Assembly: GCA_018817025.1 (NCBI GenBank)
Contig: JAHIUU010000006.1
Coordinates: forward strand, 251,909-315,908
Reading direction: 5' to 3'
Source: Candidatus Babelota bacterium
GTDB lineage: Bacteria; Babelota; Babeliae; Babelales; JAHIUU01
DNA: 64,000 bases
Shown here: piece after piece, positions 12,510 to 58,715 of the stretch
How the letters are laid out: each line of letters begins with the position of its first letter
Numbering within the stretch: position 1 is the first letter of the stretch
Notes under the pieces: model-generated
Seen by the model: the letters and a program-made list of their open reading frames with translations, nothing else
Told to the model about the DNA's origin: nothing
Database searches by the model: none
Position numbers and translations under genes: made by a program

Positions 12510-12637
12510 GTTTGGGATATGCCGTATGGGAATTGACAATATGATTGATTTTGGTTGGCGTTTGAAGCGATTGCATTTGAAACTACTTATACATGAGATA
12601 GCAAAAGGTGGTACGTAAAAAATGTGTGGGAGTTGCC

Positions 12638-35008: not shown

Positions 35009-36661
35009 ATGATAATACGAAAAAATTATAAACCAAGGTTGTTGCTTGTTTTACTTTTTTTTCTTGTCCTATACGCGGTTATTGCCGTTCGTCTTTTTTT
35101 GGTTCAAATTTATCAACAGGATTTTTTTGAGATTCTTGCTCGTCAGCAGTATGTGACTGAGATTACGACGCGGCCGGCAAGAGCCTTGATCTATGATAGG
35201 AATGGAGAGCCGCTCACATTAAACAGAGAACGGCTCTCCGCTTTTTTGTTGCCACACCGTTTTCATGAACCAAAAAGAATCATGAAATTATTGAAAAAAC
35301 GATTTCCATCTGTATACAAAAAGTTACGAAAAGAAAAGAAACGGCGATTCTTGTGGGTTGATAGGCATCTTTCTGCCGAAGCTTTGCGAGAAATGAAAGC
35401 ATATAACAGTCCGGACATTTATTTTTTAGCCGAGCCCGAGCGGTTTTATCCATTTCCCGCAACGGCGCATGTGGTTGGATTCACCGATGTTGATAACATT
35501 GGTATTGCGGGGATTGAATTGCGGTTCAATAATTTGGTTGGAGGGACTCCGACGACGTTTGTTTTGGAAAAAGATGCTCGCTCCGGTCATTTTTATTTTA
35601 ATAGAGATATAAAAAAACGGGGTGGGGAGGGTGAGCCGGTAACGCTTACTATCGATAGAAATTTGCAGTTTTTTGCCCAGGAAGAACTGTTGAAAACGGT
35701 TGCGAATTATGAGGCAAAAGGCGGGGCTGTTTTGATTATGGACCCTAACTCTGGACATGTTTTAGCTATGGCAAGCAGCCCTGGATTTGATCCAAATCAA
35801 TCACGCATCACCGATCCTGAGCAAACAAAAAATATTCCGGTTACCGAGTGTTTTGAGTTGGGGTCAGTTATTAAGGTTTTTGCCGCGTTGGCGGCGCTTG
35901 AAGAAGGTGTTGTGACGCCTGACGAAGAACTAGATTGTGAGGGAAAATCAACATATATAGATGGATTTCGAGTTGAAAACTGGAAGTCTCTCGGAGAAGG
36001 GATCCATTCATTTTCTGAGGTTGTTGCTCAGTCGAACAATGTTGGGATTGCTAAAGTTGCTAAGAGGCTAGGGCCTCGTCTGTATTATCACTTGCGAAAG
36101 CTTGGTTTTGGCAATCGAACTGGTATTCGTTTTCCGGGTGAGCGTTCTGGGTTTGTTAACCCGCCGCACAATTGGTCTCGCTCTTCGATTGTTGTGCTTT
36201 CATTTGGATATGAGATTATGGCGACGATACTGCAGTTGGGAAAAGCTTTTTCCGTTATCGCAAATGGGGGATATGATGTCCAGCCTGTTCTCGTGCTAAA
36301 TCCAGAGCGCAAAAAGCGGGTTTTGCCTTTTGGAGCGCTTTATAAAAAAGAAGTTGTTGAGCAACTCAAAGATATTCTTGAGTTGAGAGGATGGTTGAAG
36401 AAGCGATATAGCATCGAAGGCTATCGAATTGTTGGAAAAACAGGTACGGCGCGGAGTGTCAAAGATGGAAAATATTCTCAGAATGATCATGTCTACACCT
36501 ATGCTGCTATTGTTGAAAAGGGCGATTACAGAAGGGTTGTTGTCTCATTCATAAAGGAGCCAAAAAAGGCGCATATGTGGGCGACTGAGGTGACGACGCC
36601 GCTATTCCACAAGGTTGCTGAGAAGATGGTCGTATATGACACTGCGAAGGGGGTTTTGTGA
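35009..36661 (+). CDS. ftsI: Class B penicillin-binding protein (FtsI/PBP3)
   Basis: R.LIYDRNG, R.YP, GIELRFN, LTID, SVIK (SxxK), SNN (SxN), KTG. Confidence 0.92.
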   Translation: MIIRKNYKPRLLLVLLFFLVLYAVIAVRLFLVQIYQQDFFEILARQQYVTEITTRPARALIYDRNGEPLTLNRERLSAFLLPHRFHEPKRIMKLLKKRFPSVYKKLRKEKKRRFLWVDRHLSAEALREMKAYNSPDIYFLAEPERFYPFPATAHVVGFTDVDNIGIAGIELRFNNLVGGTPTTFVLEKDARSGHFYFNRDIKKRGGEGEPVTLTIDRNLQFFAQEELLKTVANYEAKGGAVLIMDPNSGHVLAMASSPGFDPNQSRITDPEQTKNIPVTECFELGSVIKVFAALAALEEGVVTPDEELDCEGKSTYIDGFRVENWKSLGEGIHSFSEVVAQSNNVGIAKVAKRLGPRLYYHLRKLGFGNRTGIRFPGERSGFVNPPHNWSRSSIVVLSFGYEIMATILQLGKAFSVIANGGYDVQPVLVLNPERKKRVLPFGALYKKEVVEQLKDILELRGWLKKRYSIEGYRIVGKTGTARSVKDGKYSQNDHVYTYAAIVEKGDYRRVVVSFIKEPKKAHMWATEVTTPLFHKVAEKMVVYDTAKGVL

Positions 36662-37642
36662 GTCCTGATCGCATAGAAAAAAAAGATTGGGATGCCGTTG
36701 ACACATTTCATGCGCATTGGTGATCTGGTGGTTTGAAGCGTGATTTTTCAGTGGGACGAGTAGACTTCGTTTTTGAAAGAATTCCAGCTCAAAAAGTGTG
36801 CCTGCGCCAGCTCGACAAATGACAAGGTCGGCTAGACGATAAAAGTCTTTGATTGAATTAGTGTATTCAAATATGTGAGCGGGAATGTTGTGTTGCTCAT
36901 AGAATTTTTTCCAATTAGTTTGATCGATAGATCCGGTTTGATGAATTACCTGTATTGAGCCTATATATTGGTTTGTTTGTATAAATTCCTTGATCATATT
37001 ATTTAGCAAGAGTGAGCCTTGTGAACCGCCAAGTAAAAAAATTGTTTTACGGCCAGAAGAAAAGTGTGGGGGCCGAGTTATGGGGCTGGTTGTATCATGC
37101 ACTGAAAAGCGAAGTGGGTATTTTTCTAGTGAGCATTTGTTTTGATATTTGCTTTTAAAAAATTTTGTACTTTTTTGAAACGAAATAAAGATTTTTTTTG
37201 CAACTGGTGACAAGAATCGAGTTGCCTTTCCCGGGATAACATTGAACTCATGTAGCTCTACTGGTATTGAGAGAAGTTTGCCTGCCAGACATACCGGTAT
37301 TGCTATAATCCCACCGGTGCTGATTATGACACATGGTTTTTGTTTCTTTAAAAAATGAAAACTTTTAAAAAATGAGTGTGCGAATTGTAAAAAAAACAGG
37401 GGGTAGCGCCATATTTTTTTGCCGGGGAGATTTGTCAGCTTGAGCCGTACTATTTGTATTGGTTGGTCATAGTTTGCGAGTATCGCTTGGTCGAGCTTTC
37501 TGGTATTACAAAAAAAGAGAAGTGATCCGTGGGGCGTTTGTTCAAGATGTTGTTTTCCAAGACGTAGAGCAGGTGTGATGTGACCACCAGATCCACCTGC
37601 GACAAGACAGATTGTTTTATTTAGCGGAGCAAGTTTTTGCAT
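36602..37642 (-). CDS. murG: Undecaprenyl-PP-MurNAc-pentapeptide GlcNAc transferase
   Basis: GGSGGHITP, STGG, HEFN..PG.A, GGSQG, HQTG, CRAGAGT. Confidence 0.93.
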   Translation of the reverse strand: MQKLAPLNKTICLVAGGSGGHITPALRLGKQHLEQTPHGSLLFFCNTRKLDQAILANYDQPIQIVRLKLTNLPGKKIWRYPLFFLQFAHSFFKSFHFLKKQKPCVIISTGGIIAIPVCLAGKLLSIPVELHEFNVIPGKATRFLSPVAKKIFISFQKSTKFFKSKYQNKCSLEKYPLRFSVHDTTSPITRPPHFSSGRKTIFLLGGSQGSLLLNNMIKEFIQTNQYIGSIQVIHQTGSIDQTNWKKFYEQHNIPAHIFEYTNSIKDFYRLADLVICRAGAGTLFELEFFQKRSLLVPLKNHASNHQITNAHEMCQRHPNLFFLCDQDSQNPLRSVIYDHLLSNLVE

Positions 37643-39263
37643 GGCTTTGAATTATTTTGTCATGAGGTGCAAGCGTGAGGGCTTTGTTGAAAAGTTCTTT
37701 CGCTTCGTTATATTTTCCTTGCTTTTGGAGAATACATGCCTTTGTATCAAGAAAGTATGGTGACTGTGGAGTTGTTGCTAATGCTTTGTCAATCAGCGTG
37801 AGCGCGTATGAAAGTTTAGTAGAGGACTGTTTTTTTGGTTTTGATATCAGGTATGCCATGAGATTGTAAGTTGACGGATATATGACTTCTTGCTGAAGTG
37901 CGCGGTCGAGTGTTTTGGTTGCTTCTTGCTTATTATCAGTTACAAAATGTATAAATCCTGTTTGAAACAGTAGCTTGGCTTTGAGTTTTTTGCTGTTTGT
38001 TCGCTTAAACGCTTGGTCGTAGCTTTTGAGTGCGTTGTTGTACTGTTTAGCTTGTATTTGTAGATCTGCTATCGCGAGAGGGATGGTGTCGAGAGTATCG
38101 TGTTTTTTGTTGGCAGCTTCTAGAATTGCTATTGCTTGTTCGGATGAAATAATTTGCTCCTTGCCACTTAGTCTAAGAATGAGCTTAATAATGGAGTTGT
38201 TATGTGGTTTTTTTAGAAGCCAATTTTGTATGAGAGGCGCAATTTCTTCGTATTGATTGAGGGCTATGCAGATTTCAATTTTAAGTCCGATTGCTTTTTC
38301 AAAAAGAGGGCTTTTATTCAGTGCTTCATTAATTGCATTGAGCGCTTTGACATGATTTTTTGCTTTCCATTCGAGAAGGGCAAGGTCGGTGTAATATTCT
38401 GGTTGGTCTCTATTCTCTTGATTAATTTTTCTTAGCTCAGCAGCAGCTTGAGCAAATTTTCGTTGTGAAAAGAGAAGTTGGACAAGCTGTTTGGTAATTG
38501 CTGGGTCGTGTTTTGTAAGAGATAAATATTTTCTGTAGTGAGCGATGGCCTGATCAATCTGTTTTGTTTGCTCAAGCAGGAGAGCTTTGAAAAGAACTCC
38601 CTGATCGAATTTTGGGGCTAGTTTGAGGCTACTGTCAATTGCGGCGAGTGCTTGCTTAGGATTTCCAATCTTGAGCAGGATTTTTGCTTTTAGAAAGTAG
38701 AACAGGAAGAATCTGTTTTGGTTTGATTTGTTTGTGAGAAACGCTTCGATTTCTTCGAGAGCTTTTGATATGTTGTTTGTTCTTTCATTATGAGCGGCTG
38801 AGTAATATGCGATTTGCTCGTTTTCTGGGTACTGTTCTTTTAGCTTCTCAAGAAACTCTCTTGCTTGTATATCTTTATTAGTGTTTAGGAGCGATTGTGC
38901 ATAGATTAGTTGAATCTCTAGATTTTCTTTAAAGTTATCTTGTGTTTTATCTATAAGACTAACAATTCTATTAAATTGATTGGTTTGAGAGAGTAGTCGT
39001 AAATAGCCGTCATAGACATATGATGGAGCGTCTCGTATGAACAGATCGTTGTATATTTTGAGTGCCTGGTGAAACTGGCCGCTGTGTTGAAAGTAGTTTG
39101 CTTTAAGATAGAGCGTTGACTGTTGAATTTTTTCTTCTGTTGCTGTGCTTAGGAACGAGAATAGTGTTGTTTGTGTTGGTTTAGCCAGTTCTGGTTGTGT
39201 ATTTGCTGTGGTTACAATAAACAAAAAAAGAAAAAGAATATATTTTTTCTTGTTTTTCTGCAT
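37617..39263 (-). CDS. Exported TPR-repeat protein
   Basis: Signal-like N-terminus, multiple TPR helices, terminal YN..AY...P....LDT.A...G.Y.EA...AL..AP. Confidence 0.85.
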   Translation of the reverse strand: MQKNKKKYILFLFLFIVTTANTQPELAKPTQTTLFSFLSTATEEKIQQSTLYLKANYFQHSGQFHQALKIYNDLFIRDAPSYVYDGYLRLLSQTNQFNRIVSLIDKTQDNFKENLEIQLIYAQSLLNTNKDIQAREFLEKLKEQYPENEQIAYYSAAHNERTNNISKALEEIEAFLTNKSNQNRFFLFYFLKAKILLKIGNPKQALAAIDSSLKLAPKFDQGVLFKALLLEQTKQIDQAIAHYRKYLSLTKHDPAITKQLVQLLFSQRKFAQAAAELRKINQENRDQPEYYTDLALLEWKAKNHVKALNAINEALNKSPLFEKAIGLKIEICIALNQYEEIAPLIQNWLLKKPHNNSIIKLILRLSGKEQIISSEQAIAILEAANKKHDTLDTIPLAIADLQIQAKQYNNALKSYDQAFKRTNSKKLKAKLLFQTGFIHFVTDNKQEATKTLDRALQQEVIYPSTYNLMAYLISKPKKQSSTKLSYALTLIDKALATTPQSPYFLDTKACILQKQGKYNEAKELFNKALTLAPHDKIIQSHAKTCSAK

Positions 39264-39274
39264 GATAGCTTCCC

Positions 39275-39721
39275 CTACGGTTTGATTTTTTTACATCGAA
39301 TGTAGAATTGTTCAAGTGATTGAGCTAATTCTGTATTTTTCATCAATTGGAGTTTGCTATGTTCAATGATTGTTAGACAGTGTTCTGTTCGATAAGTTTT
39401 TTCTGTTAGAGAGTCTTGTTTGGATTGATGGCTTGTTTTTGGTGTTGTAAATCGAACCGTTTTGAACTGTATGTTTTTAATTTTATTTTCTTGTAGATAT
39501 GTGTTTATTTTTTGTTTGAGCATTGGGGACAATAAAAAGAGTTCCTGGGCCCATGTTGGATGACAAACGCCGATGGTAAGCGAGGTTTCAGTTAGTTTTT
39601 CGATGCGAACTTTTTCTTTTAAATTGCCAATGATTGTCTCCCAGTATCCGAATAGTTTTATTTTCCAGAGATGTTCGTTTGGAATTATGTTGGTAAGAAT
39701 GGTTCCGATACGTTTTGGCAT
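39275..39721 (-). CDS. DUF721/DciA-family protein
   Basis: W..IIG, L.IGV.HPTWAQEL..L...L..KIN. Confidence 0.75.
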   Translation of the reverse strand: MPKRIGTILTNIIPNEHLWKIKLFGYWETIIGNLKEKVRIEKLTETSLTIGVCHPTWAQELFLLSPMLKQKINTYLQENKIKNIQFKTVRFTTPKTSHQSKQDSLTEKTYRTEHCLTIIEHSKLQLMKNTELAQSLEQFYIRCKKIKP

Positions 39722-39841
39722 ATAAGTTCGTATGGTTATGGTTTTGTTGCTAGAGATGTTTTTCAGTGTACACATCACCATCTTTTGTTACAATGATTTT
39801 TGCCAAAATATATCGGTTTATTTGTGAGAGAGGAGCTTTTT

Positions 39842-41713
39842 GTGGGCAAATATTTAGAACTTGAGGCGAGGGCGTTGCAATTGCGCATTGATTCCCTTCG
39901 AGCTACAGCAGCGAGTGCTTCCGGTCATCCTACGACCTGCCTTTCTGCGGCCGATATTGTTTCGGCTCTTTTTTTTAAAATAATGAATTTCAATGTTTCT
40001 AGTCCCGACGATCTAACCAATGATCGGTTTATTTTGTCGAAGGGGCACGGAGTTCCCGTTGTCTATGCTGCTTACAGGCAATTGGGGGTTTTGAGCGATG
40101 AAGATTTTATGAAGCTTCGAGAATTTGACAGCCCTCTCGAGGGGCATCCTACGCCACGGTTTGTTTACAATGAAGCGGCGACAGGGTCTTTGGGACAAGG
40201 TCTTGCAATTGGTGCAGGGATGGTGTTGCACGCGCATCGCGACAAGCTTGCGTATAAGACATACGTGCTTCTCGGTGATGGCGAAGTTGCAGAGGGGTCA
40301 GTTTGGGAGGCGGCTGAGTTTGCTTCGTATTATAACTTGAACAGTCTGACTGCCATTGTTGACTGTAATCGATTGGGCCAAACTGGTCAGACGTTATATG
40401 GGCATGATGTAGAAAAACTTGCAGAAAAGTTTAGGGCCTTTGGGTGGCGTACGGTCGTTATTGATGGGCATGATATTGAACAAATCGTCGAGGAGCTTGA
40501 AAAAACAAAAACGTCTCTCGACAAGCCGACGGCGATTGTTGCAAAAACATATAAGGGGCATGGGGTTGATTCTTTTCAAGATAAAAATGGGTTTCATGGC
40601 AAGCCTGTAAAAGCTGAAGAACTTGGACCAGTAATACAACATTTGAAGAATCGTTTTGTTGAAGCGAATCAGTATTTGGAACGAGAGATTATTGTTTCTC
40701 AGAAAAAAGTAGATCTTTTGTCTTATACCAAAAAAAGCTTTTCTTCCATCTCTATAGATATCACGACTGACATGCACAGTAAGTTATTTGAGAAAACAGA
40801 AAAGCTTGCAACAAGAAAAGCGTTTGGGTACGCGTTAGCCTCGCTTGGCCGGGTGTGTTCTGATATTGAAGTTCTTGATGCTGACGTGAAAAATTCGACG
40901 TTTACAGAAATTTTCGAAAAAGAGTTTCCAGATCGATTGACGCAATGTTTTATTGCGGAGCAGACAATGATAGGTGTTGCAACTGGGTTGCAGGCGCGGG
41001 GTAAAATTCCGTTTGCGGCGACTTTTGCTGCGTTTTTAACGCGCGCGCACGACCAAATTCGTATGGCCGGCATTGGTTGCAACGCGTTACGCTTGTGCGG
41101 GTCTCACGCTGGGGTGTCGATCGGAGAGGATGGTCCATCCCAAATGGGACTTGAAGATTTGTCGATGATGCGATCTGTTCCAAGGTCTATCGTGCTATAT
41201 CCAAGTGATGCGGTTTCGACTTATAAGCTTGTTGAACGGATGGCGAATTATAACGCTGGTATTTCGTATTTGCGGACAACTCGTTCAGCAACACCAATAT
41301 TATACAAGAAAGATGAACTGTTCGAGGTTGGGGGCTGTAAGGTTTTGCGAGAAAGTGATAACGATCAAGCCTGTCTTGTTGCGGCTGGAATAACGGTGCA
41401 CGAGGCGCTCAAGGCGTACGAGATCTTAAAAGAAAAAAATATTTTTGTTTCTGTTATTGATGCTTACTCGATTAAGCCAATCGATAGTGAGATGATAAAA
41501 AAAATTGCTTGTAAGTCAGGCAATAACGTTATAACGATCGAAGATCACTATATCGAAGGCGGTCTTGGCGAGGCTGTTGCGGCTGCGTTGATTAACGATC
41601 CTATTGTTCTTAAGATACTAGCGGTCACGAAGTTATCCCGATCAGGGAAGCCGGACGAACTCCTTGCATATGCAGGTATTGATGCTGCAAGTATCGTGAG
41701 TTGTTTCGAGTAA
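39842..41713 (+). CDS. tkt: Transketolase (TKT, eukaryote-like long form)
   Basis: SGHPT, LSKGH, LEGHP, GSLGQG, LGDGE..EGSVWEA, IAEQ, GEDGPSQMGLED. Confidence 0.93.
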   Translation: MGKYLELEARALQLRIDSLRATAASASGHPTTCLSAADIVSALFFKIMNFNVSSPDDLTNDRFILSKGHGVPVVYAAYRQLGVLSDEDFMKLREFDSPLEGHPTPRFVYNEAATGSLGQGLAIGAGMVLHAHRDKLAYKTYVLLGDGEVAEGSVWEAAEFASYYNLNSLTAIVDCNRLGQTGQTLYGHDVEKLAEKFRAFGWRTVVIDGHDIEQIVEELEKTKTSLDKPTAIVAKTYKGHGVDSFQDKNGFHGKPVKAEELGPVIQHLKNRFVEANQYLEREIIVSQKKVDLLSYTKKSFSSISIDITTDMHSKLFEKTEKLATRKAFGYALASLGRVCSDIEVLDADVKNSTFTEIFEKEFPDRLTQCFIAEQTMIGVATGLQARGKIPFAATFAAFLTRAHDQIRMAGIGCNALRLCGSHAGVSIGEDGPSQMGLEDLSMMRSVPRSIVLYPSDAVSTYKLVERMANYNAGISYLRTTRSATPILYKKDELFEVGGCKVLRESDNDQACLVAAGITVHEALKAYEILKEKNIFVSVIDAYSIKPIDSEMIKKIACKSGNNVITIEDHYIEGGLGEAVAAALINDPIVLKILAVTKLSRSGKPDELLAYAGIDAASIVSCFE

Positions 41714-41717
41714 ATAG

Positions 41718-41968
41718 CGACTTAAGGTCTGTTGCGTTTTGGGCCTCAAAGGCCTTTAAAGGTCGATTTTTTTGATAGGATCGTTCGAAGAGTCTGTTTG
41801 CCGTTTCTATAATCTCTTGGTCTTTAAGGAGCCGGACGAGAGTTAATAAAAACTTTTCCTGAAGGGTGACATACTCACGGTAATGAATTACCGTGCATCT
41901 TAATCTTTGCACTTAAGAATCGCTTTCTGCTTCGACGAGCCAACTTGATCGCCATCTCGCAAGAAGGC
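41718..41968 (-). pseudogene. Frameshifted remnant resembling the DinB/UmuC (Y-family polymerase) little-finger domain
   Basis: Three minus frames stitch to AFL / EMAIKLARRSRKRFLSAK / TVIHYREYVTLQEK...KDQEIIETANRLFERSYQKNRPLKAF...ATDL, which follows the IMS_C pattern. Confidence 0.45.
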
Positions 41969-42073
41969 ACCCAGAGGTTATTCTCTCAGATGGTTGCATT
42001 TTAAGACTTTTTCTCACTAAACTGAGAGCGGTTTTGTAAGAAATAAAAACAAAAAGTACGAAGAATTAATGTT

Positions 42074-44542
42074 ATGATATTAACTGAAATGTTAAAAGAT
42101 AACGCAAGCGAGTATCCAGATAGTCCTGCCCTAACAATGAAAATGGGGTTTCGTACCGTTACCCTGACATACAAGCAAGCGTACGATGCTTCTCGTCAGG
42201 TCGCGTTGCTGCTTAATTGTGAGGGTGTGAAGAAGGGTGATGCTGTTTTGCTGCTTGCGCCAAACTCCCCTTACTGGATTTGCACGTTTTGGGGATGTAT
42301 GCTTGCAGGTGTCGTTGTTGTGCCGCTCAATGTGCAGAGTACGCCCAAGCTGGTTGAAAAAATTGCCAAGCAGGTCGATGCGAAGTTGTTTTTTGCTCAT
42401 CGATATTATCGATACGATTTACCCGGTGAGATTAATCGATACGATGTTGACCTACTTCCTGAGCATCTAAAATCGTTTAAGCCTGATCGATTCGAAGCGT
42501 TATTCGTAGATGAAAACGATCTTGTTGAAATCTTGTACACCTCTGGAACGACTGGCGATCCGAAGGGGGTATTGCTTACCCACAAAAATTTATATTCAAA
42601 TGTTGCTGCGATTTCAAAATTGGTGTCGCTTGAGTTTGGTAAAGAACGGTTACTTTCTATTTTGCCGTTAAGCCATATTTTTGAACAGGCCGGCATGCTG
42701 CTTGCGTTTCATTACCGGGCACATACGATTTATGCCCACTCTCACGCGGCTATTCGCGATCTTCTTCAGGGATATAGCGTTACAAAAATGCTCGCTGTCC
42801 CTGAGTTTCTAAAGATTTTGATGGGAAGAATAGAAGGTGCGTTTGCTGAGCGTGGTAAAATAAATCTTTTTAAAAAGCTTGTGCGTTTTTCGCTTAAACT
42901 TCCCGGAAAAAAAATCTCGCGCTTATTATTTTATATGGTGCATAAAAAATTGGGTGGCAAGTTGGACACGATTGTTTCTGGTGGAGCTCCGCTTGATCCA
43001 GAATTAGAGCGCAAATGGAACGCCTTGGGAGTTGCGTTGTTTCAGGGGTACGGTCTTACCGAGACGTCGCCGCTGATAGCTTGTAATACATATGACGATC
43101 ACAGATTTGGATCCGTTGGTCGCGTCGTGCCAGGTGTCCAAGTTAGACTTTCTGAGCAAGGGGAGATTCAGGTTCGTGGGCCGAGTGTGTTTTCTGGTTA
43201 CTTTAAAAATAAAGAAAAAACAAAAGAAGCGTTTACTCGTGACGGTTGGTTTAGGACAGGTGATGTGGGCGAGTTTGACCAGAATAAATTTCTTTTTTTA
43301 AAGGGGCGAAGGAAATATATGATTGTTGGCCCCGGTGGCCAGAACGTATTTCCCGAAGATATCGAAGAGATTATTAATAGTTTTGAGGTGGTGCTAGATT
43401 GTACTGTTGTTGGTATTGAGCAGGCGAGTGGCATGGTTGAAATCCATGCGGTCTTGCTCAGGCCACAGGGAGATGTGGCGGCTATTATTGCGCGAGCGAA
43501 TGAGCGGCTTGCTTCCTATCAGCAGGTTACCGGTTTTTCGGTTTGGCCAGAAGAAGACTTCCCACGGTCTGCGACGAAGAAAGTAAAAAAAGATGAGGTA
43601 ATAAGATTTTTACTTTCTCAAAAAGGAGAGAACGGAGTTGTGACGAGTGGGGGGAATGTGGCCCCGGTTGTTTTGCTTCTTGCACGGGTGACTGGCGTAG
43701 CAAGTTCACGGATAACTCCTGAAACAAGCTTTGCTAAGCTCCATATAGATTCACTTCTGCGTGTTGAGTTGATTGCTCGGATTGAGGAGCAGTTTGAGAT
43801 TTTGCTTGACGAAGCGAAGTTGACGAGTCAAACAACGGTTGAGCAACTTGAAAAAATGATTTGTGAACGTGAGACGGTTAAAGCACTTGCGCCGTTGTCA
43901 TGGTGGCCTCGATTATGGTGGGCTAGAGGGATTCGTGAGGTTGGTCAATGGTTAGTTTTTCTTTTGATGCGCATATTTATTAAGCTCCAAGTTAAGGGGA
44001 TAGAAAATCTCAATGGACTGTCTTTACCAGTTGTTTTTATGCCAAATCATCTATCCTATTTTGATCCGATGATTTTGGTGGCGGCGTTGCCTAGAAAGGT
44101 TGGTCGACACGTTGCGTTTGCGGCTGCAAATGACATGCTCTATGGAAGTTACCGGTGGTTTGCTGGCTTTGCAGAGCTTTTATTAAATGCGTTTCCGTTT
44201 CCAAGGCGTGAGGGTGAAAACGTGAAGCTTGGACTTGATTATATGGGGCGGATTTTGGATGAAGATTTTTCGGTTGGTGTATTTCCCGAAGGGAAAGTGA
44301 GTGAGACCGGTGAGCTTTTGCCTTTAAAGAAGGGGGCCGGTCTTGTTGCGATTGAGATGCGAGTGCCCGTTGTACCGGTTTATATCGAAGGAAGTCAGGA
44401 AGTCTTTCCGTACTTTACTTTGTTTCCTAGAAAGCGGGGAACGGTAACGGTGACGTTTGGAAAGCCTATAATGTTTAAGCCTACAGAATCATATGTTGCT
44501 GCGACTGAGCAGATAGAAGAAGCGTTGAAAGAGCTTTCCTAA
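42074..44542 (+). CDS. Tri-domain AMP-dependent acyl ligase - acyl carrier protein - lysophospholipid acyltransferase (PlsC-like)
   Basis: YTSGTTGDPKG, GYGLTE, WFRTGD, KKVKK; ACP motif IDSLLRVELIARIEEQF; PNHLSYFD and VFPEG acyltransferase motifs. Confidence 0.9.
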   Translation: MILTEMLKDNASEYPDSPALTMKMGFRTVTLTYKQAYDASRQVALLLNCEGVKKGDAVLLLAPNSPYWICTFWGCMLAGVVVVPLNVQSTPKLVEKIAKQVDAKLFFAHRYYRYDLPGEINRYDVDLLPEHLKSFKPDRFEALFVDENDLVEILYTSGTTGDPKGVLLTHKNLYSNVAAISKLVSLEFGKERLLSILPLSHIFEQAGMLLAFHYRAHTIYAHSHAAIRDLLQGYSVTKMLAVPEFLKILMGRIEGAFAERGKINLFKKLVRFSLKLPGKKISRLLFYMVHKKLGGKLDTIVSGGAPLDPELERKWNALGVALFQGYGLTETSPLIACNTYDDHRFGSVGRVVPGVQVRLSEQGEIQVRGPSVFSGYFKNKEKTKEAFTRDGWFRTGDVGEFDQNKFLFLKGRRKYMIVGPGGQNVFPEDIEEIINSFEVVLDCTVVGIEQASGMVEIHAVLLRPQGDVAAIIARANERLASYQQVTGFSVWPEEDFPRSATKKVKKDEVIRFLLSQKGENGVVTSGGNVAPVVLLLARVTGVASSRITPETSFAKLHIDSLLRVELIARIEEQFEILLDEAKLTSQTTVEQLEKMICERETVKALAPLSWWPRLWWARGIREVGQWLVFLLMRIFIKLQVKGIENLNGLSLPVVFMPNHLSYFDPMILVAALPRKVGRHVAFAAANDMLYGSYRWFAGFAELLLNAFPFPRREGENVKLGLDYMGRILDEDFSVGVFPEGKVSETGELLPLKKGAGLVAIEMRVPVVPVYIEGSQEVFPYFTLFPRKRGTVTVTFGKPIMFKPTESYVAATEQIEEALKELS

Positions 44543-44553
44543 CGACAATTACT

Positions 44554-45930
44554 CTAGGTATTGTTTTTTTGTTTGTCGATTATTACTTCTGGGTTTCCAA
44601 TAATTTTGTTTTTCTCTACAAGCTTGTGATGTTTGACGCTCACAAACCGTGCCACAATAGCCCAAAAGGAAACGATGGTAAGCAGAATAGGGGCTGAGTA
44701 GCCTATCGTTTGAATTGGTGAGAAGTTTCTAAACAGGGCGTTGATTCCTGCGCCGGCTCCTTTAATCGATCGAATGCCGAAGACGTCGATCCATCCCTTT
44801 GTTTTAAATTTGACGTCTCGTGTTGTAGGGATATAAAGAATTTCTTTAGCAGGGTTGTTTAGCGCGTACGAGAGCCCTTTCAAAATAATCATAGAGGTGA
44901 AAACGATTGGGAGAACGGGAAATATTCGTACGCCGCATATGACAAGACCGGTTGCGATTGGAAAGAAGAGAAGACAAATTCTTAGGCCAAGTGTGCGCAG
45001 GAAAAAACTTGTTCCCACCAAAGCAAAGACGAGTGTCAGGCTGTTTGCCATCATGCCGTATCGAGCGTAAAACGCGGCAAAAGCCTCTTTGGTTGGGTAG
45101 GTATGATGAGCGAGTAGGTTCATCTGAAATTCCAGCATGGTTCCAATTATTTCATATCCCGTCGTAACGACAAAAATGCCAAGAAGATAAGGGTTGGTTA
45201 TTAACAGTCGTAAACCTTCGAAAAAACCTGTTTTTGGCTGGTTGACTCGGAAGAATGGAGTATCTACAAGGTCGCTTTTTTGTTCTATTGATTGGTTGAT
45301 AATAAATGGAACAAGGGCTATGCAAAAGCTTGCGATTGTAATCATAATTGGCAGGCCCAATGTTTGCGAGTAGTTTGCGACAAGAATCGTGCCGCTGATC
45401 GTGCCGACCTGCGTTATGGTAAGGATCATTCCGTATCCTCGTTTTGCCTCGTCAGTTTTAGTTTGACTTGCGACAAAAGACCAAAACAGTGCAGGGGCAA
45501 GCGCCCCAAAACTTTCGATGATAACATAGCTTACCCAGCCGACAATACTTCCTGGGAGCCAGTAAAGAAATGGAAATAGCGTGTATGCAAGTGATATGAA
45601 AGAATTTTGTGGGTACGCGACAAGGAATGCGATTCCTAAGAACATTGAAATATAGAATGAGTAGATGACGAAGAAAAGCTTCTCTTTTTTGAACAGGTCG
45701 ATCAGTTTGCTATAAATGAGAACGAGAGGGATGATAAGAAGAAACGATGCGATTTTGCCCCATGGCTGCCATCGTACTCCGACCATGTCGATAAATATTG
45801 CTTCTCGTATTCCTCGAAGCATCCAGTATGGTCCTATGGTGAGCATGAGTGCCAAAGAAAACAGTCCAAATTTTTTTAGTTCCGAGACACTCAAATCACC
45901 CCATATAATTCTAAGGGGCTTTGGCAACAC
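44554..45930 (-). CDS. Nucleotide transporter, NTT/TLC (ATP/ADP translocase-like)
   Basis: WGDL...E.KKF, YW.LR, FWSF, NP.KEILYIPT.RDVKFK.KGWIDVFG.R..K. Confidence 0.88.
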   Translation of the reverse strand: MLPKPLRIIWGDLSVSELKKFGLFSLALMLTIGPYWMLRGIREAIFIDMVGVRWQPWGKIASFLLIIPLVLIYSKLIDLFKKEKLFFVIYSFYISMFLGIAFLVAYPQNSFISLAYTLFPFLYWLPGSIVGWVSYVIIESFGALAPALFWSFVASQTKTDEAKRGYGMILTITQVGTISGTILVANYSQTLGLPIMITIASFCIALVPFIINQSIEQKSDLVDTPFFRVNQPKTGFFEGLRLLITNPYLLGIFVVTTGYEIIGTMLEFQMNLLAHHTYPTKEAFAAFYARYGMMANSLTLVFALVGTSFFLRTLGLRICLLFFPIATGLVICGVRIFPVLPIVFTSMIILKGLSYALNNPAKEILYIPTTRDVKFKTKGWIDVFGIRSIKGAGAGINALFRNFSPIQTIGYSAPILLTIVSFWAIVARFVSVKHHKLVEKNKIIGNPEVIIDKQKNNT

Positions 45931-46005
45931 GGCAGGGACCTTTCTTGTTTGTTCCTAAACTAGCAAAAGGTATCGTATCAGATCTGGAACAATGTTCAAG
46001 TGGGT

Positions 46006-47337
46006 CTATTTCTTTTTACTCATCATCTCCCAGAACTCATCGTTTGACTTGGTTTTTCGCATCTTTTCAATGATAAATTCCATGCCGTCGATTGTGTTCA
46101 TAGTGCCAAGAAATTTCTGCAGTATCCAGAGATTTTTGACCCCTTCTGGAGTGAGGAGAAGGTCTTCACGCCGAGTTCCTGAGCTTTGAAGATCAAAGGC
46201 CGGATAAATCCGACGATTAGAAAGTTTTCTTGTGAGGTGGATTTCCATGTTGCCGGTTCCCTTGAATTCTTCGAAGATAACCTCATCCATACGAGAGCCG
46301 GTTTCGATAAGTGCCGTTGCGAGGATTGTTAGTGATCCCCCCTCTTCGACATTTCGTGCGGCACCAAAAAAACGCTTTGGTCGTTGCAGTGCGTTCGCAT
46401 CTATACCACCACTCAAAACTTTTCCTGATGACGGAGCCAAGGTGTTGTAAGCGCGAGCAAGACGTGTCAGAGAGTCGAGAAGGACAACGACATCGTGGCC
46501 ACATTCAACAAGTCGTTTTGCTTTTTCTAACACAATCTCTGCTACCTGAACGTGTCGTGTTGCGTACTCGTCAAATGTTGAACTAACGACTTCTGCGTCC
46601 ACCGAACGCTGCATGTCGGTTACCTCTTCTGGGCGTTCGTCGATGAGTAGGATGATCATGATCACTTCAGGGTGATTCTCGATGATGGTATTAGCGATCT
46701 CTTTCAAGAGAACCGTCTTACCCGTTCTTGGCGGAGCAACGATGATTCCTCGCTGTCCCTTACCTACCGGCGTGAGAATGTCCATGATTCGTGTTGAAAT
46801 AACGGTTGGTGTGCCTACGAGATTGAATTTTTCGTCAGGAAAGAGTGGTGTTAGGTTTTCAAAAACTGTTTTATGTGAAGAGTGTGTTGGTTGTGCAAAG
46901 TTTACGCTTTCAACCCGTTGAAGTGCGAAATATTTCTCGCCTTCTTTTGGCTTTCTCAAAGTTCCTTTGATGACGTCTCCTGTTCGCAATCCAAAACGTT
47001 TAATGTGTGCCGGAGAGACATAAATGTCATCCGGTCCTGGAACGTAGTTGAACTTTGGGGAGCGCAGGAAACCAAATCCGTCAGGAAGACGCTCGAGTAT
47101 TCCTTCTCCATAAATCTCAACATTTTTTTCAGATTGTGATTCAAGTATTTTGAAGATAATTTCTTGTTTTTTTAAAGAGCCAACGTCAGGAATGCCAAGC
47201 TTTTGAGCATAGTCGATTAAATCAGTGATGCTCATCTCTTTTAATGAGCGCATATTGATTGACGTTTTAGGGTGCTTTAGGTGAGTATTAACTTCTGGTT
47301 TGTTATTTTTTTTTATGTCTTTTGTCATTTTCCCCAA
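46006..47337 (-). CDS. rho: Transcription termination factor Rho
   Basis: [50 protein letters not shown]. Confidence 0.98.
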
Positions 47338-47389
47338 TTTACACGTTAGTTTGATTATTAAGATTACTGTCTAATTTGCTAATTTATTT

Positions 47390-48274
47390 TTACTTGCTTT
47401 GTTTGGAGGCTGGCTTAAGTGCCAACATAACTGGACTTGCAACATAGATGGATGAGTACGTTCCAACGACGATACCTACAAGCATCGCTAGGGAGAAGCC
47501 TCTTAGCGCCGGTCCGCCGAGAACGAAGATTGACCCGACAGCAAGCAGGGTAGAAAAGCTTGTCAAAAGGGTTCGTCGTAGCGTTTGGTTCAGGCTAATA
47601 TTGACAATGTTTTCTTCGGTCTGTTCTTTTAGCTTTTTCATGTTTTCGCGAATTCTACTGAATATAACGATTGAGTCATTGAGTGAATATCCGATAACGG
47701 TCAGGATTGCCGCTAGAACGTGGACAGAAATCTGCTCTCCCAATACAAGGAATGCGGTTATAACGACGAGCATGTCGTGAGCGATAGCGGCTACAGCCCC
47801 TGCTGCGAACCGATATTTTGATCGGATTGTTACGTACAGCAAGATAAGAAGTAGAGATAGTAAGACTGATAAGATGGCGTTGAACTTTATGTCGCGCCCT
47901 ACTTCTGGGCCTACCCAGTCTATACTGTCTAATGTGGGGAAATTTTTTGGGTAAAGCGTTTTAACCTCTTTAAAGATTACTTCACCGAGATTTTCTTCTG
48001 ATCCTTGAACCTGAATGATAAATGAGTAGTTGGTTCCTTGGGCTCCACTGTTACCAATGCTCTGAATAACGGCGTCTTGATATCCGGCTTTGGCGAGGCT
48101 TTTTCTCAAGTCACTAATTGGCAATGGGGTTTGGAAAGAGATTCGTATTTCTGATCCACCTGCGAAGTCAACGTAGTAACGAAATCCCTTTGTGAAAAAG
48201 GCAATCCCGCCGACGACCAAAACTCCAAGTGATATGGCATAACAAATGTAACGATACTTAAGAAAATCTATCAT
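47390..48274 (-). CDS. secF: Protein translocase subunit SecF
   Basis: DFAGG, VGPEVG, HD, GYSLND.IVIF.RIRE, TL.RT..TS.ST, GTYSSIYVA. Confidence 0.95.
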   Translation of the reverse strand: MIDFLKYRYICYAISLGVLVVGGIAFFTKGFRYYVDFAGGSEIRISFQTPLPISDLRKSLAKAGYQDAVIQSIGNSGAQGTNYSFIIQVQGSEENLGEVIFKEVKTLYPKNFPTLDSIDWVGPEVGRDIKFNAILSVLLSLLLILLYVTIRSKYRFAAGAVAAIAHDMLVVITAFLVLGEQISVHVLAAILTVIGYSLNDSIVIFSRIRENMKKLKEQTEENIVNISLNQTLRRTLLTSFSTLLAVGSIFVLGGPALRGFSLAMLVGIVVGTYSSIYVASPVMLALKPASKQSK

Positions 48275-55846: not shown

Positions 55847-57184
55847 GTGATGGGACAAAGGTTAATTCGGGCGTTATGGGGAGACCTGAGTAAAGAGGAA
55901 CTTAAGAAGTTTTCGCTTCTTGCAGTTGGCTTTTTTTTGTTGATTGGCTCCTACTGGCCACTCAAAATTTTAAAAGATGTGGTCTTTATCAACATGATTG
56001 GAAGTAAGTACCAGCCAGATGCAAAGATTTTGTCGCTGATACTTTTTTTTCCACTTGTTCTGTTTTACTCTCGTCTTGTCGATTACTTCTCGAAAGAAAA
56101 ATTAATTTATTTTTTCGTTATTATGTACGGCAGTCTTGGGTTTCTGTTCGTCTATTTCTTTTATCACCCAACGATTGGGGTTGCAAATGCTGAGCAGAGT
56201 CCCTATAGATTGCTCGGATGGCTATTTTATCTGTTTGTTGAGAGCTACATTTCTATAATGGTTTCATTATATTGGGCATTTATAAATGACGTAACGACGC
56301 CAGAGTCTGCTAAAAAGGGTTACGGCCTTCTTATTTTTGGCAGTCAGCTTGGTGCGGTTGTTTTCATTTCTATAGGTAACTATCTATCTCGTGATGTTTC
56401 ATTGTATGCGCAGCGTGTGCCATTTATTGCCCTGATGTCAGTTCTCACTTTTTTCCTGGTTGCCCTTGTCGTCTTTCTATTAACTCATGTTGTTAGTCAT
56501 GATGAACTTCAGGGATATCAGGGGACAGACAAAGGTATTGAGAAGAAGGGATCGGTAGGTTTTTTTGATGGGCTACGTGTTCTGCTTAGATTTCCGTATG
56601 TTGGTGGAATTTTTGGATTAGTATTTTTTCATGAGGTTGTTTCCGCGCTCATGCATTATCAAATGCTTCGGTTGGTAGAGGTGACCTATCTTTCGAATTC
56701 TGGGTTTGTCAATAAGTTTATGTTTGATTTTACGCTTGTTATGCAAGGTATATCCTGTTTGTTTGCCCTCTTTGGAACATCGTATTTTCAGCGAAAAATA
56801 GGAGTGAGGGGTTGCTTACTATCTTACCCAATATTGTTAGGCATAGGCGTTGTGTTTTATATTGTTAATCCGACATTATCGTTTATTGCTGGTGTTATGA
56901 TTATTGCGAAGGGAATCAACTACGTTCTCAATCAGCCGGCCAAAGAGATTTTGTATATTCCAACAACCAGGGCGATTAAGTATAAGGCTAAGGCGTGGGT
57001 GGATATGTTTGGTTTGCGTTCAGCCAAGATGGGAGGCTCTCTTGTTAATAAGTCGATAGGGTTGGCCTCGAATGTTACTGGCGGTATTTCAATACTCGTG
57101 ATAGTTTTCTGGGTTGGTCTTTCTAGGGCTATTGGTCGCAAATATCACGAGGTTGTTACGAAAGGGGATCGTATCGGGGCATAA
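55847..57184 (+). CDS. Nucleotide transporter, NTT/TLC
   Basis: LWGDL..EE.KKF, YW.LKILKD, NQPAKEILYIPT..IKYKAKAW.D.FG.R..K. Confidence 0.88.
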   Translation: MMGQRLIRALWGDLSKEELKKFSLLAVGFFLLIGSYWPLKILKDVVFINMIGSKYQPDAKILSLILFFPLVLFYSRLVDYFSKEKLIYFFVIMYGSLGFLFVYFFYHPTIGVANAEQSPYRLLGWLFYLFVESYISIMVSLYWAFINDVTTPESAKKGYGLLIFGSQLGAVVFISIGNYLSRDVSLYAQRVPFIALMSVLTFFLVALVVFLLTHVVSHDELQGYQGTDKGIEKKGSVGFFDGLRVLLRFPYVGGIFGLVFFHEVVSALMHYQMLRLVEVTYLSNSGFVNKFMFDFTLVMQGISCLFALFGTSYFQRKIGVRGCLLSYPILLGIGVVFYIVNPTLSFIAGVMIIAKGINYVLNQPAKEILYIPTTRAIKYKAKAWVDMFGLRSAKMGGSLVNKSIGLASNVTGGISILVIVFWVGLSRAIGRKYHEVVTKGDRIGA

Positions 57185-57238: not shown

Positions 57239-57341
57239 TGATCAGGAAATCAGGGAGTTTTACCTTGCGGGGGAGGACGGGCCTAGAAGTTCCTAAATTT
57301 GTATTTGTGTTTTTTTGTTTTACCGTTTCGAGGAGATGGTT

Positions 57342-58715
57342 ATGCTACGACTTGTTCGTGTTTTATGGGGTGATTTGACGAGAGATGAACTCAAGAAGTT
57401 CGGGATCTTGTCGGTTGCCATGATGTTGATTGTTGGTAACTATTGGATGTTGCGTGTAACTAAAGATGCGTTATTTGACGTCCTCGTTGGATTTCGTCAA
57501 TGGCAGCCGGTTGCAAAGATGATTTCTGTGCTCGTTATGGTTGTTGTTGTTCTTGGGTATAGTAAGCTTGTTGACATGCTCAGGCGACACCATCTTATCT
57601 ATCTGGTATGTTCTTTTTACGGGGTGACCTTTATTCTTCTCAGTTACCTTGCTACGAATCCAGAGCTTCTCGCAGTAAGTAGTACCTCCTTAATCTACCC
57701 ACTTGTGTCATGGATTCCGTCAAAGATTCCTGGTGGTGGTATTGGGTGGTTTGCCTATGTCTTTCTGGAAAGTTATGGTTCGCTTTTGATCGCAGTATTT
57801 TACTCCTTTATTGCGAGTGTTATGACAACCGGATTGGCGAAAAAGGGGTACGGTATGATGATGTCCATAACACAGTTTGGAACATTGTCTGGTGTGCTTA
57901 TCTCTATGTTTTTTGTCGAGCGAGTTGGCATTCCAATGTTGTACTTTTTTGGTGGGATCGTGGTTTTATCGGCACCGTTTATCATAAGGTACTACATATC
58001 ACAATTTCCTGAAGATATTGCCTCGACACAAGAGGCTGTTGCTGGGAAGAAAAATAAGACGGGATTTTTCGAGGGATTGCGACTTATTGCAACGCGGCCA
58101 TATATCATGGGTGTTTTTGTTGTCGTGACCGCCTATGAAATTATCTCAACTATCGTTGAGTATCAAATGAGCTGGATTGCTGTCGGGATTTATTCGCCAG
58201 AACAGTTCACTGTCTTTCGAACCTATCAGGGACTTGGAATTAACTTGCTTGCATTATTATTTGCCATTATCGGCACCAGCTTCTTCATGAGAAGACTTGG
58301 CTTGAAATTTTGTTTAATGGCGTTTCCTATTACGATAGGTGTGGTTGTGACTGCAAACTATCTTGTACGGTTGTCAGGGGCTGGAAATACCACCTTAATG
58401 TGGGTTCTTATGCTCGCAACGGTTGCGATCAAGGGTCTTAATTATGCGCTGAACAAACCAACCTCAGAAGTGATGTACATTCCAACCAGTAAAGATGTGA
58501 AATTTAAGTCAAAAGGCTGGATTGATGTTTTTGGAAATCGCTCGACCAAAGGAGTTGGTGCTACCGTGTCGAAGAGTCTGGGACACTCGCTTCCAGTCTT
58601 GTTGATGTACGGTACAATCATATCGCTTGGAATTGTTGGAGTTTGGTTATTGATAGCACAGTTTGTTGGTAATAAGTTCAACAAACTACAAGAACAGGAT
58701 GCGATTGTCGAATAA
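57342..58715 (+). CDS. Nucleotide transporter, NTT/TLC
   Basis: LWGDL..DE.KKF, YWMLRVTKD, NKP..E.MYIPT.KDVKFKSKGWIDVFG.R.TK; RBS AGGAG. Confidence 0.88.
   Translation: MLRLVRVLWGDLTRDELKKFGILSVAMMLIVGNYWMLRVTKDALFDVLVGFRQWQPVAKMISVLVMVVVVLGYSKLVDMLRRHHLIYLVCSFYGVTFILLSYLATNPELLAVSSTSLIYPLVSWIPSKIPGGGIGWFAYVFLESYGSLLIAVFYSFIASVMTTGLAKKGYGMMMSITQFGTLSGVLISMFFVERVGIPMLYFFGGIVVLSAPFIIRYYISQFPEDIASTQEAVAGKKNKTGFFEGLRLIATRPYIMGVFVVVTAYEIISTIVEYQMSWIAVGIYSPEQFTVFRTYQGLGINLLALLFAIIGTSFFMRRLGLKFCLMAFPITIGVVVTANYLVRLSGAGNTTLMWVLMLATVAIKGLNYALNKPTSEVMYIPTSKDVKFKSKGWIDVFGNRSTKGVGATVSKSLGHSLPVLLMYGTIISLGIVGVWLLIAQFVGNKFNKLQEQDAIVE

Follow-up and report, generated by a model that had tools for sequence, protein, structure and literature searches.

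A fatty-acid ligase, acyl carrier and acyltransferase in one chain: a candidate module for exogenous fatty-acid use in Dependentiae

Published work describes Dependentiae as without fatty-acid synthesis and reliant on the lipids of their hosts (PMC4776705, PMC6561590). Genome papers on Dependentiae and Patescibacteria describe the missing lipid and fatty-acid synthesis and the use of host lipids while leaving the enzyme unnamed (PMC4776705, PMC6561590, PMC7242380). What, then, does a single protein that joins a fatty-acid ligase, an acyl carrier protein (ACP) and an acyltransferase (AT) do in such a bacterium? The gene in question belongs to Candidatus Babelota bacterium, an intracellular member of the Dependentiae (TM6) with a 1.1 Mb genome, and lies in a window of 64,000 nt (assembly GCA_018817025.1, contig JAHIUU010000006.1, 251,909-315,908, forward strand) to which all nucleotide positions below refer. 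We consider it probable that the fusion works as a self-contained module through which exogenous fatty acids enter phospholipid. Its family is a concrete candidate for host-lipid use, one that would need only ATP, free fatty acid, a phosphopantetheinyl transferase and a lyso-lipid.

A three-domain fusion and its fold

The fusion gene occupies 42074..44542 on the + strand and encodes 822 aa, as seen in the ORF list, the translation and the Pfam matches. N-terminal conservation favours the start codon at 42074 (L3 is at least 90% conserved); an alternative database gene call starts 5 codons downstream and gives 817 aa. The 360 nt upstream (41714..42073, + strand) are non-coding and contain a terminator-like hairpin (41751-41764) 3' of a transketolase-like gene, so that the fusion gene is probably transcribed on its own; a consensus scan called no sigma-70-like promoter on the + strand upstream of it. 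Its neighbours are the transketolase-like gene and a TLC transporter, and neither elb-like genes (elbB/C/E type) nor an LplT-like partner was found among them. The acpS gene of this genome is on a different contig, which rules out an acpS adjoining the fusion gene in the window. A tblastn search of positions 36001-48000 also gave no acpS match, although the same query missed most known adjacent acpS genes.

The ORF opens with the ligase: residue 8 pairs with position 2 of the Pfam model in the alignment of the adenylate-forming (ANL) N-terminal domain (residues 8-377, 42095..43204, PF00501 E 3e-74; this and all features below are on the + strand). Motif searches located the A3 P-loop YTSGTTGDPKG (155-165, nt 42536-42568), the A7 motif GYGLTE (325-330, nt 43046-43063) and the A10 lysine K503 (nt 43580-43582). 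The hinge and the ligase C-terminal subdomain (391-515, 43244..43618) begin with GWFRTGD (391-397), which supplies the A8 hinge Asp (GWxxTGD) and, together with a downstream GRRK, forms a fatty-acyl-CoA-synthetase-like signature. All four ANL signatures, including the A7 consensus GYGxTE, are 97-100% conserved. AMP-binding_C (PF13193) matches residues 430-503 weakly, under its cut-off. A flexible linker (516-534, 43619..43675), the least conserved stretch of the protein (mean top-residue frequency 0.27), leads to the acyl carrier domain (535-596, 43676..43861, PF00550 (PP-binding) E 1.6e-11). Here the phosphopantetheine site is predicted from the motif LHIDSL (556-561) to be Ser560 (nt 43751-43753); a preliminary description had placed this serine in IDSL at 43748-43753, and those six nucleotides are exactly the codons of D559 and S560.

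Downstream of the carrier, a Trp-rich amphipathic segment (SWWPRLWW...) and a long helix (601-640, 43874..43993; helix 615-635 in the model) probably form an interfacial membrane anchor before the acyltransferase core. That core has the PlsC/GPAT fold (43985..44539); Pfam covers residues 638-771 (PF01553 E 1.3e-22) and the fold reaches residue 822. The family's features are all present: HX4D as NHLSYFD (658-664, with H659/D664 at nt 44048-44065), the block II Arg (R711), FPEG (737-740, nt 44282-44293), block IV as VPVVPV (764-769) and the alpha/beta PlsC fold. The order AMP-binding, carrier, PlsC-type in one chain, as first described, is thus borne out by Pfam and by the motifs. The term "NRPS-like" used at that stage suits the adenylation-carrier logic but not the rest, since the carrier resembles a fatty-acid-synthesis ACP and there is no condensation or ketosynthase domain, Pfam matches being limited to AMP-binding, PP-binding and Acyltransferase.

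Among 120 relatives (about 50% overall identity), the catalytic motifs, intact in the fusion, are 98-100% conserved, which together with the domain E-values puts the architecture far beyond chance. The P-loop residues, D397, G411, R412, K503 and S560 are 100% conserved; D559 is 98% conserved and L561 and E565 are nearly invariant; W611, H659, R711 and P738-E739-G740 are invariant. Taxon labels of the metagenome-assembled genomes (MAGs) that hold relatives at 46-51% identity may be unreliable.

An AF2 model of the whole protein has a pLDDT of 83.9, falling below 50 at residues 518-528 in the linker. The ligase has FadD13, MenE and 4CL as its best PDB sequence matches and 3r44 as its top Foldseek match (E 5e-41); the fusion also shows detectable sequence similarity to the AasS structure 8jyl (E 4.7e-20). 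From its sequence, the ANL domain is predicted to act on fatty acids, and in the model its C-terminal subdomain best fits thioester-forming conformers. NCBIfam and PDB sequence matches of the carrier are AcpP/AcpM-type ACPs, not PCPs, and its fold agrees with ACPs at an rmsd of 1.2-1.6 A. The acyltransferase aligns with Thermotoga maritima PlsC (5kym) at a VIA-align Z of 19.2 (rmsd 3.0 A, 187 residues), the Trp-rich/helix region pairing with the N-terminal helix region of that protein from chain residue 39, and with a plant GPAT at Z 17.7. The fold does not discriminate between acceptors: PlsC, plant GPAT, GPAT1 and chain T of 7zkq, which we take to be tafazzin, all fall at Z 15-19.

Lipid genes in the source genome and its relatives

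The source genome carries AcpS, free AcpP, PlsX, PlsY, a separate PlsC and a FadD-like ligase, so the fusion meets no obvious need there. Fatty-acid synthesis (FASII) is reduced to a FabD-FabG-AcpP-FabF remnant: FabH, FabI, FabK and FabA/FabZ were not found in this genome, and FabA/FabZ was not found in 16 FabF-positive relatives either. Candidates for FabH and for a second ketosynthase turned out to belong to a mevalonate cluster, as its HMG-CoA synthase and its thiolase. A complete FASII is thus ruled out, as is a genome devoid of fab and ACP genes. The preliminary description, which had called for a check of fab and acpS genes, was largely right in proposing a route without de novo fatty-acid synthesis, except that fabD-fabG-acpP-fabF is kept. 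Its proposal that scavenging runs through this one protein fits the incomplete FASII but not the presence of free AcpP, PlsX, PlsY and PlsC. Since FASII is incomplete, the canonical AcpP/PlsX/PlsY/PlsC route must also take scavenged acyl chains. The fusion would be a parallel acylation route in this genome, not the sole one. The case is therefore less striking in this window, and the canonical route, the FadD-like ligase and the non-adjacent acpS all count against reading the fusion as a self-contained module.

The strongest evidence for the fusion's role is the gene content of its relatives in two other sets of genomes, the Dependentiae families f8 and f14 (12 genomes, 88-98% complete). FabF, PlsX, PlsY and DgkA were each found in 0/12 and no separate PlsC was found, where "not found" in a MAG does not amount to proven absence. 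The fusion orthologue is the sole PF01553 acyltransferase in all 12 and the sole PF00501 AMP-binding enzyme in 11, and acpS lies directly upstream of it on the same strand in 11/12, a different set of 11. CdsA and CDP-alcohol phosphatidyltransferases are both present in 12/12. Beyond the fusion, no enzyme that activates or transfers acyl groups could be recognised in these most reduced relatives. Linkage to acpS is not a general trait: in two further families, f7 and f11, it is Dtd, LiaF-like or GyrI-like genes that precede the fusion, and the fusion gene's neighbours differ from family to family. In two other MAGs the module is split into an operon of the form acpS / ligase / ACP-AT, and in both the carrier stays fused to the acyltransferase. 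A scan of a genome collection with one narrow peptide pattern returned 12 loci and is not a census.

A proposed route and its alternatives

The route that follows, with every chemical step, the use of a fatty acid, the choice of acceptor and the contact with the membrane, is one that we infer from the domains with their motifs and folds, from sequence conservation and from which genes are present and in what order. The genome's AcpS would convert the Ser560 carrier to its holo form. The ANL domain would use ATP to adenylate a free long-chain fatty acid and, in its thioester-forming conformation, load the acyl group onto the phosphopantetheine thiol at Ser560 of the same chain. The carrier would then swing on the flexible linker to the PlsC-fold domain, which the Trp-rich amphipathic segment may hold at the membrane surface, and the His659/Asp664 dyad would acylate a lyso-glycerophospholipid at its free hydroxyl. 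Of the possible acceptors 1-acyl-glycerol-3-phosphate is the likeliest, and its acylation would supply CdsA with phosphatidate; lysophospholipids from the host may serve as well. The assembly-line reading first put forward for this gene (activate, carry, transfer) fits the conserved active sites, the AcpS in the genome, the acpS-upstream linkage and the split operons. In the source genome the fusion would work alongside the canonical route; in f8 and f14 it would apparently be the sole acylation route. If confirmed, it would be the key step by which these parasites build their membranes, and would offer a compact means of making phospholipids in cell-free systems and synthetic cells.

A bolder version, which we put forward tentatively and think rather unlikely, concerns lineages that keep CdsA and in which FabF, PlsX, PlsY, PlsB, PlsC and DgkA were not found. 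There, fusion and AcpS might be the entire acylation machinery, acylating both glycerol-3-phosphate positions from host fatty acids as a one-protein, FASII-independent phosphatidate synthase. If true, this would explain membrane building in Dependentiae and in the split-operon Patescibacteria.

Alternatively, the fusion might serve only Aas-like membrane repair in a Lands cycle, re-acylating lyso-PE and lyso-PG from phospholipases or from the host with no de novo phosphatidate. The chemistry would equal that of the module we favour; the acceptor and the physiological role would differ. In NCBIfam comparisons the best curated models for the acyltransferase domain are of the Aas / LplT-Aas lysophospholipid type (67 bits, vs 55 for the LPA-acyltransferase model, AGP_acyltrn), whereas the genome's separate PlsC shows the opposite trend (46 vs 74 bits); this leans toward lyso-PE/PG and against LPA as the acceptor. 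For the de novo route, moreover, the source genome has a full set of PlsX, PlsY and PlsC. All these scores, however, are far under curated cut-offs: the domain reaches 45-67 bits across Aas-type models with cut-offs of 886-1349 (44.5 vs 886 for one such model), and TIGR00530 gives it 55 bits vs 103. There is also no LplT-like partner nearby, and the f8 and f14 genomes, with no other acyltransferase found, have retained CdsA and CDP-alcohol transferases, enzymes for which phosphatidate is required. We therefore judge repair as the only role to be unlikely, though worth keeping in view.

It is less likely still, and in our estimate improbable, that the fusion is a specialised, ElbD-like enzyme whose product is not bulk phospholipid but some non-standard lipid (a precursor of ether lipids, an acylated amino lipid or a different secondary lipid). 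The order ACS-ACP-AGPAT is that of ElbD, and PF01553 also holds OlsA- and GlsA-type lyso-aminolipid acyltransferases, with GlsA a weak match to this domain at 27 bits. Against it, a FAR domain and elb-like neighbours are absent, the neighbours vary among families, and the most reduced of the CdsA-bearing relatives keep the fusion as their sole acyltransferase. Lastly, an embedded carrier that is structural or vestigial, with the ligase making acyl-CoA or charging free AcpP in trans while the acyltransferase draws on that soluble donor, would suit a ligase that is FACL-like (closest to FadD13, MenE and 4CL, not to FAALs) and the free ACP of nearly all Dependentiae, f8 and f14 included, but is very improbable given the invariant Ser560 with its nearly invariant surroundings, the operonic acpS in 11 of the 12 f8 and f14 genomes and the split operons that keep ACP and AT fused.

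Comparison with known systems

Proteins of this architecture are already known: they are widespread in Bacteria, with tri-domain members in Acidobacteriota, Chloroflexota and Thermodesulfobacteriota, form a large family in databases and resemble ElbD minus its reductase. ElbD, from the ether-lipid biosynthesis of Myxococcus xanthus (FAR-ACS-ACP-AGPAT), shares the order ACS-ACP-AGPAT with the fusion. In vitro work confirmed its ACS and ACP activities but could not detect its acyltransferase activity, and "ElbD-like homologues lacking the FAR1 domain" are mentioned from other phyla (PMC9131029). ElbD begins with a FAR1-like reductase, whereas the fusion has no reductase family match and only non-coding sequence in the 360 nt upstream; and ElbD makes ether lipids, whereas the role we propose for the fusion is bulk phospholipid acylation. 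A search of longer proteins, which is weak evidence, found no ElbD-like proteins containing the ACP-AT half, and a literature search gave no described fusion of AMP-binding, PP-binding and lysophospholipid acyltransferase domains beyond ElbD.

E. coli Aas (2-acyl-GPE acyltransferase / acyl-ACP synthetase) and LplT-Aas pair an ANL with a PlsC-family domain, as the fusion does, and pass exogenous fatty acids to lysophospholipids. In Aas, however, the acyltransferase is N-terminal to the synthetase, whereas the fusion has the ligase at 8-503 and the AT at 638-771. This reversal, already pointed out in the preliminary description, agrees with NCBIfam Aas-type models, to which the fusion's AT aligns early (8-153 of 719, 418-592 of 1147) and its ligase late (898-1056 of ~1140). 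As a whole protein the fusion scores 192 and 183 bits on models of this group (Aas, NF005959; LplT-Aas, NF006386 and NF005291), vs cut-offs of 1349 and 1221. Aas uses free ACP, whereas the fusion has an embedded carrier with a conserved DSL serine, and the LplT flippase is neither fused to the fusion gene nor adjoining it.

PlsC (1-acyl-sn-glycerol-3-phosphate acyltransferase) has its fold, motifs and N-terminal helix region in common with the fusion's AT at 23-26% identity, the source genome's own PlsC included. Unlike PlsC, this AT is joined to its own donor-generating machinery. Vibrio AasS and chlamydial AasC also put exogenous or host fatty acids on a phosphopantetheine thiol for phospholipid synthesis, but their carrier is free AcpP, loaded in trans, and the acyltransferases are separate proteins, whereas the fusion is one chain.

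A three-domain enzyme in a single chain

The gene at 42074-44542 (+) is a single ORF of 822 aa, and its product (the fusion) matches Pfam models in the order AMP-binding (residues 8-377, E 3e-74), PP-binding (535-596, E 1.6e-11) and Acyltransferase PF01553 (638-771, E 1.3e-22), with a weak AMP-binding_C match at 430-503. The ligase carries the P-loop YTSGTTGDPKG (155-165), GYGLTE (325-330), GWFRTGD...GRRK (391-414), similar to the fatty-acyl-CoA-synthetase signature, and the A10 lysine K503; the carrier motif is LHIDSL, and the PlsC-type acyltransferase domain (AT) contains NHLSYFD (HX4D; 658-664), FPEG (737-740) and VPVVPV (764-769). ORF, domain order and the full set of diagnostic motifs thus bear out the preliminary description of a ligase-ACP-acyltransferase protein, which had also placed the phosphopantetheine serine exactly (D559-S560, nt 43748-43753). 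Across 120 aligned full-length relatives (about 48-62% identity), S157-G161 and P163-G165 of the P-loop, E330, D397 and K503 in the ligase, and S560, H659 and P738-E739-G740 in the carrier and AT, are invariant (100%), with D664 (99%) and D559 (98%) close behind; conservation is lowest in the linker 516-534. With 98-100% conservation at their residues, all three active sites are under selection, and the fusion is a genuine enzyme whose three domains are intact and conserved.

The nearest sequences and structures to the ligase are FadD13, MenE, MatB and 4-coumarate ligase (4CL), and by sequence and predicted fold it is of the acyl-CoA/acyl-ACP-synthetase type, not a FAAL. In an AlphaFold model built from a 41-sequence alignment (mean pLDDT 83.9, pTM 0.76), its C-terminal subdomain best fits thioester-forming conformers (TM 0.73-0.80, rmsd 4-5 Å), namely the MenE ternary complex, 4CL with AMP and CoA, and the second conformation of luciferase. 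The carrier resembles FAS-type ACPs (AcpP, AcpM) in both sequence and fold (rmsd 1.2-1.6 Å) and is 33% identical to the genome's own AcpP over 43 residues. A separate ACP-AT model (pLDDT 84.1) matched T. maritima PlsC best (Z 19.2, rmsd 3.0 Å, 187 residues), followed by plant GPAT (Z 17.7), human GPAT1 (15.9) and chain T of the complex I assembly intermediate PDB 7zkq (15.5), presumably tafazzin. The PlsC fold of the modelled AT is certain; by itself, such a fold does not tell the acceptor. Carrier and AT are joined by a Trp-rich amphipathic segment, in which W611 is invariant, and a long helix; both align with the PlsC N-terminal helix region, and we infer that the fusion associates monotopically with the membrane.

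Gene surroundings and lipid genes of the genome

Genes with housekeeping functions in an intracellular bacterium surround the fusion, and no lipid gene adjoins it: a transketolase-like gene, DciA, a TPR protein, MurG and a PBP upstream, and a convergent TLC ATP/ADP translocase followed by Rho, SecF and PolA downstream. Because 360 nt of non-coding sequence precede the gene and a terminator-like hairpin immediately follows the transketolase-like gene, the fusion gene probably stands alone and is not cotranscribed with its neighbours. The stop codon of the translocase (44554-45930, -) lies 11 nt from that of the fusion, and two further ORFs of TLC translocase-like size lie at 55847-57184 and 57315-58715 (+).

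The assembly (1.10 Mb, 26 contigs, 96.7% complete) encodes an AcpS-type PPTase, one of the genes that the preliminary description proposed to check. That description's idea that de novo fatty-acid synthesis is dispensed with fared less simply: FabA/FabZ was found neither in this genome nor in 16 FabF-positive relatives (0/16), and searches of the genome found no FabK and no FabI (the SDR search gives only FabG), but the genome is not fab-free, having a classic rpmF-plsX ... fabD-fabG-acpP-fabF cluster with a free 82-aa AcpP. An apparent FabH and second ketosynthase were rejected as HMG-CoA synthase and thiolase beside HMG-CoA reductase; the three genes lie side by side at 75534-78445 (-) of contig C21 (locus L016, 340-3251) and form a mevalonate cluster, which causes false FabH or ketosynthase matches in Pfam-based fab inventories. 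The canonical elongation cycle is thus incomplete, which makes de novo synthesis of fatty acids unlikely, in agreement with published statements on TM6 (PMC4776705; PMC6561590). One idea is that the remnant fabD-fabG-acpP-fabF (contig C24, 120650-123975; locus L011, 6651-9974), lacking FabH, FabZ, FabI and FabK, would perform one condensation and one reduction on scavenged acyl-ACP, yielding 3-hydroxyacyl-ACP for lipid A. At ~105 kb on C24, a GT9 heptosyltransferase gene adjoins that of a 532-aa carboxyltransferase.

The genome also encodes PlsY, a stand-alone 244-aa PlsC, CdsA and two CDP-alcohol transferases, while DgkA was not found in it; the fusion is one of two acylation routes here, not the only one. 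Its other AMP-binding enzymes are an acetate-CoA ligase and a stand-alone 545-aa FadD-like long-chain fatty-acid ligase (12608-14245, +; 409 bits on NF004837, under the cut-off), a candidate acyl-ACP synthetase supplying free AcpP. In most Dependentiae families without the fusion, similar ligases of 515-560 aa are the sole AMP-binding matches.

Distribution, mechanism and acceptor

Those homologues that carry an organism name belong to Candidatus Babeliales, Dependentiae or TM6, and NCBI and JGI annotate the relatives simply as "AMP-binding protein" or "long-chain acyl-CoA synthetase". A search of 201 Dependentiae genomes found full-length orthologues (41-53% identity) in 38, two broken copies included, clustered in certain families: f7 (4/4), f8 (8/8), f14 (4/4), f13 (7/9) and f11 (14/23). 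Family f1 contributes only the window's own genome, f3 has none (0/67), and none was found in f5, f6 or f9. The broken copies, G149:C2:431661-434045 in two pieces and G186:C5:6306-9104 in three, both in FabF-positive genomes, may reflect frameshifts, pseudogenization or errors of assembly. FabF was found in f7, f11, f13 and f1, and in neither f8 (0/8) nor f14 (0/4); free ACP is near-universal (179/201).

Families f8 and f14 (12 genomes, 88-98% complete) are the most informative about function. PlsY, PlsX and DgkA were each found in 0/12, whereas AcpS, CdsA and one to three CDP-alcohol phosphatidyltransferases occur in all 12. The single PF01553 match per genome is the fusion every time (12/12), and in 11 of 12 it is also the only AMP-binding match. 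Judged from gene content, phosphatidate would be needed, yet the fusion appears to be the sole recognisable protein that activates and transfers acyl groups. In 11/12, acpS, whose product would arm the carrier, lies immediately 5' on the same strand (gaps of roughly 16-91 nt, 537 nt in one genome; three loci confirmed by Pfam); this linkage is absent in f7 and f11. The f8/f14 genomes, with no FabF, PlsX, PlsY or PlsC found, retain a free but divergent ACP 80-136 aa in length (PP-binding E 1e-6 to 1e-10), for example at G019:C2:81826-82008 and G074:C4:16031-16228.

The best-supported reading is activation, carriage and transfer: the ligase would adenylate a fatty acid and pass it as a thioester to the in-cis holo-carrier, which would bring it to the membrane-associated PlsC-fold domain for acylation of a lyso-glycerophospholipid. 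This mechanism, put forward in the preliminary description, is reasonable and is backed by gene context in relatives. As to the acceptor, f8/f14 gene content favours lysophosphatidate (LPA), perhaps G3P too. NCBIfam ranking argues for Aas-like lyso-PE/PG, the top curated models for the AT being Aas-type acyl-[ACP]--phospholipid O-acyltransferases (67 bits, against 55 for the LPA-acyltransferase domain model); the genome's stand-alone PlsC, only 26% identical to the AT, ranks oppositely (46 against 74 bits). Since that canonical PlsC is present, both acceptor types are possible in the window's genome.

Split operons and known systems

A 302-aa ACP-AT protein (44% identity) is encoded in an acpS / 520-aa ligase / ACP-AT operon (14-nt overlap) on a 351-kb Kerfeldbacteria-labelled contig (L041, JBDRKW010000020.1, 2812-7195). 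On the same strand lie an acylphosphatase gene 5' and PEBP-family and Ser_hydrolase genes 3', which may be further lipid-handling partners, such as a lipase freeing fatty acids. Among 12 named loci are a second split operon and three more fused genes with acpS upstream, and in the ESM Atlas three-domain clusters are commonest in Acidobacteriota, Chloroflexota and Thermodesulfobacteriota, with two-domain ACP-AT clusters in Acidobacteriota, Fusobacteriota and Myxococcota. The architecture thus occurs widely, and the fusion is not unique.

The label 'NRPS-like' fits no more than the pairing of adenylating and carrier domains: with only AMP-binding, PP-binding and Acyltransferase domains, the fusion is not an NRPS. 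It would work much as Aas does, but its domain order is reversed, as the preliminary description had recognized, its carrier is embedded and its scores fall far under the Aas cut-offs. With M. xanthus ElbD it shares the ACS-ACP-AGPAT core, but has neither the N-terminal reductase (FAR) domain nor elb-type surroundings; for other phyla, "ElbD-like homologues lacking FAR1" have been mentioned, without functional data (PMC9131029). As a type, the fusion is a variation on two known systems, Aas and ElbD.
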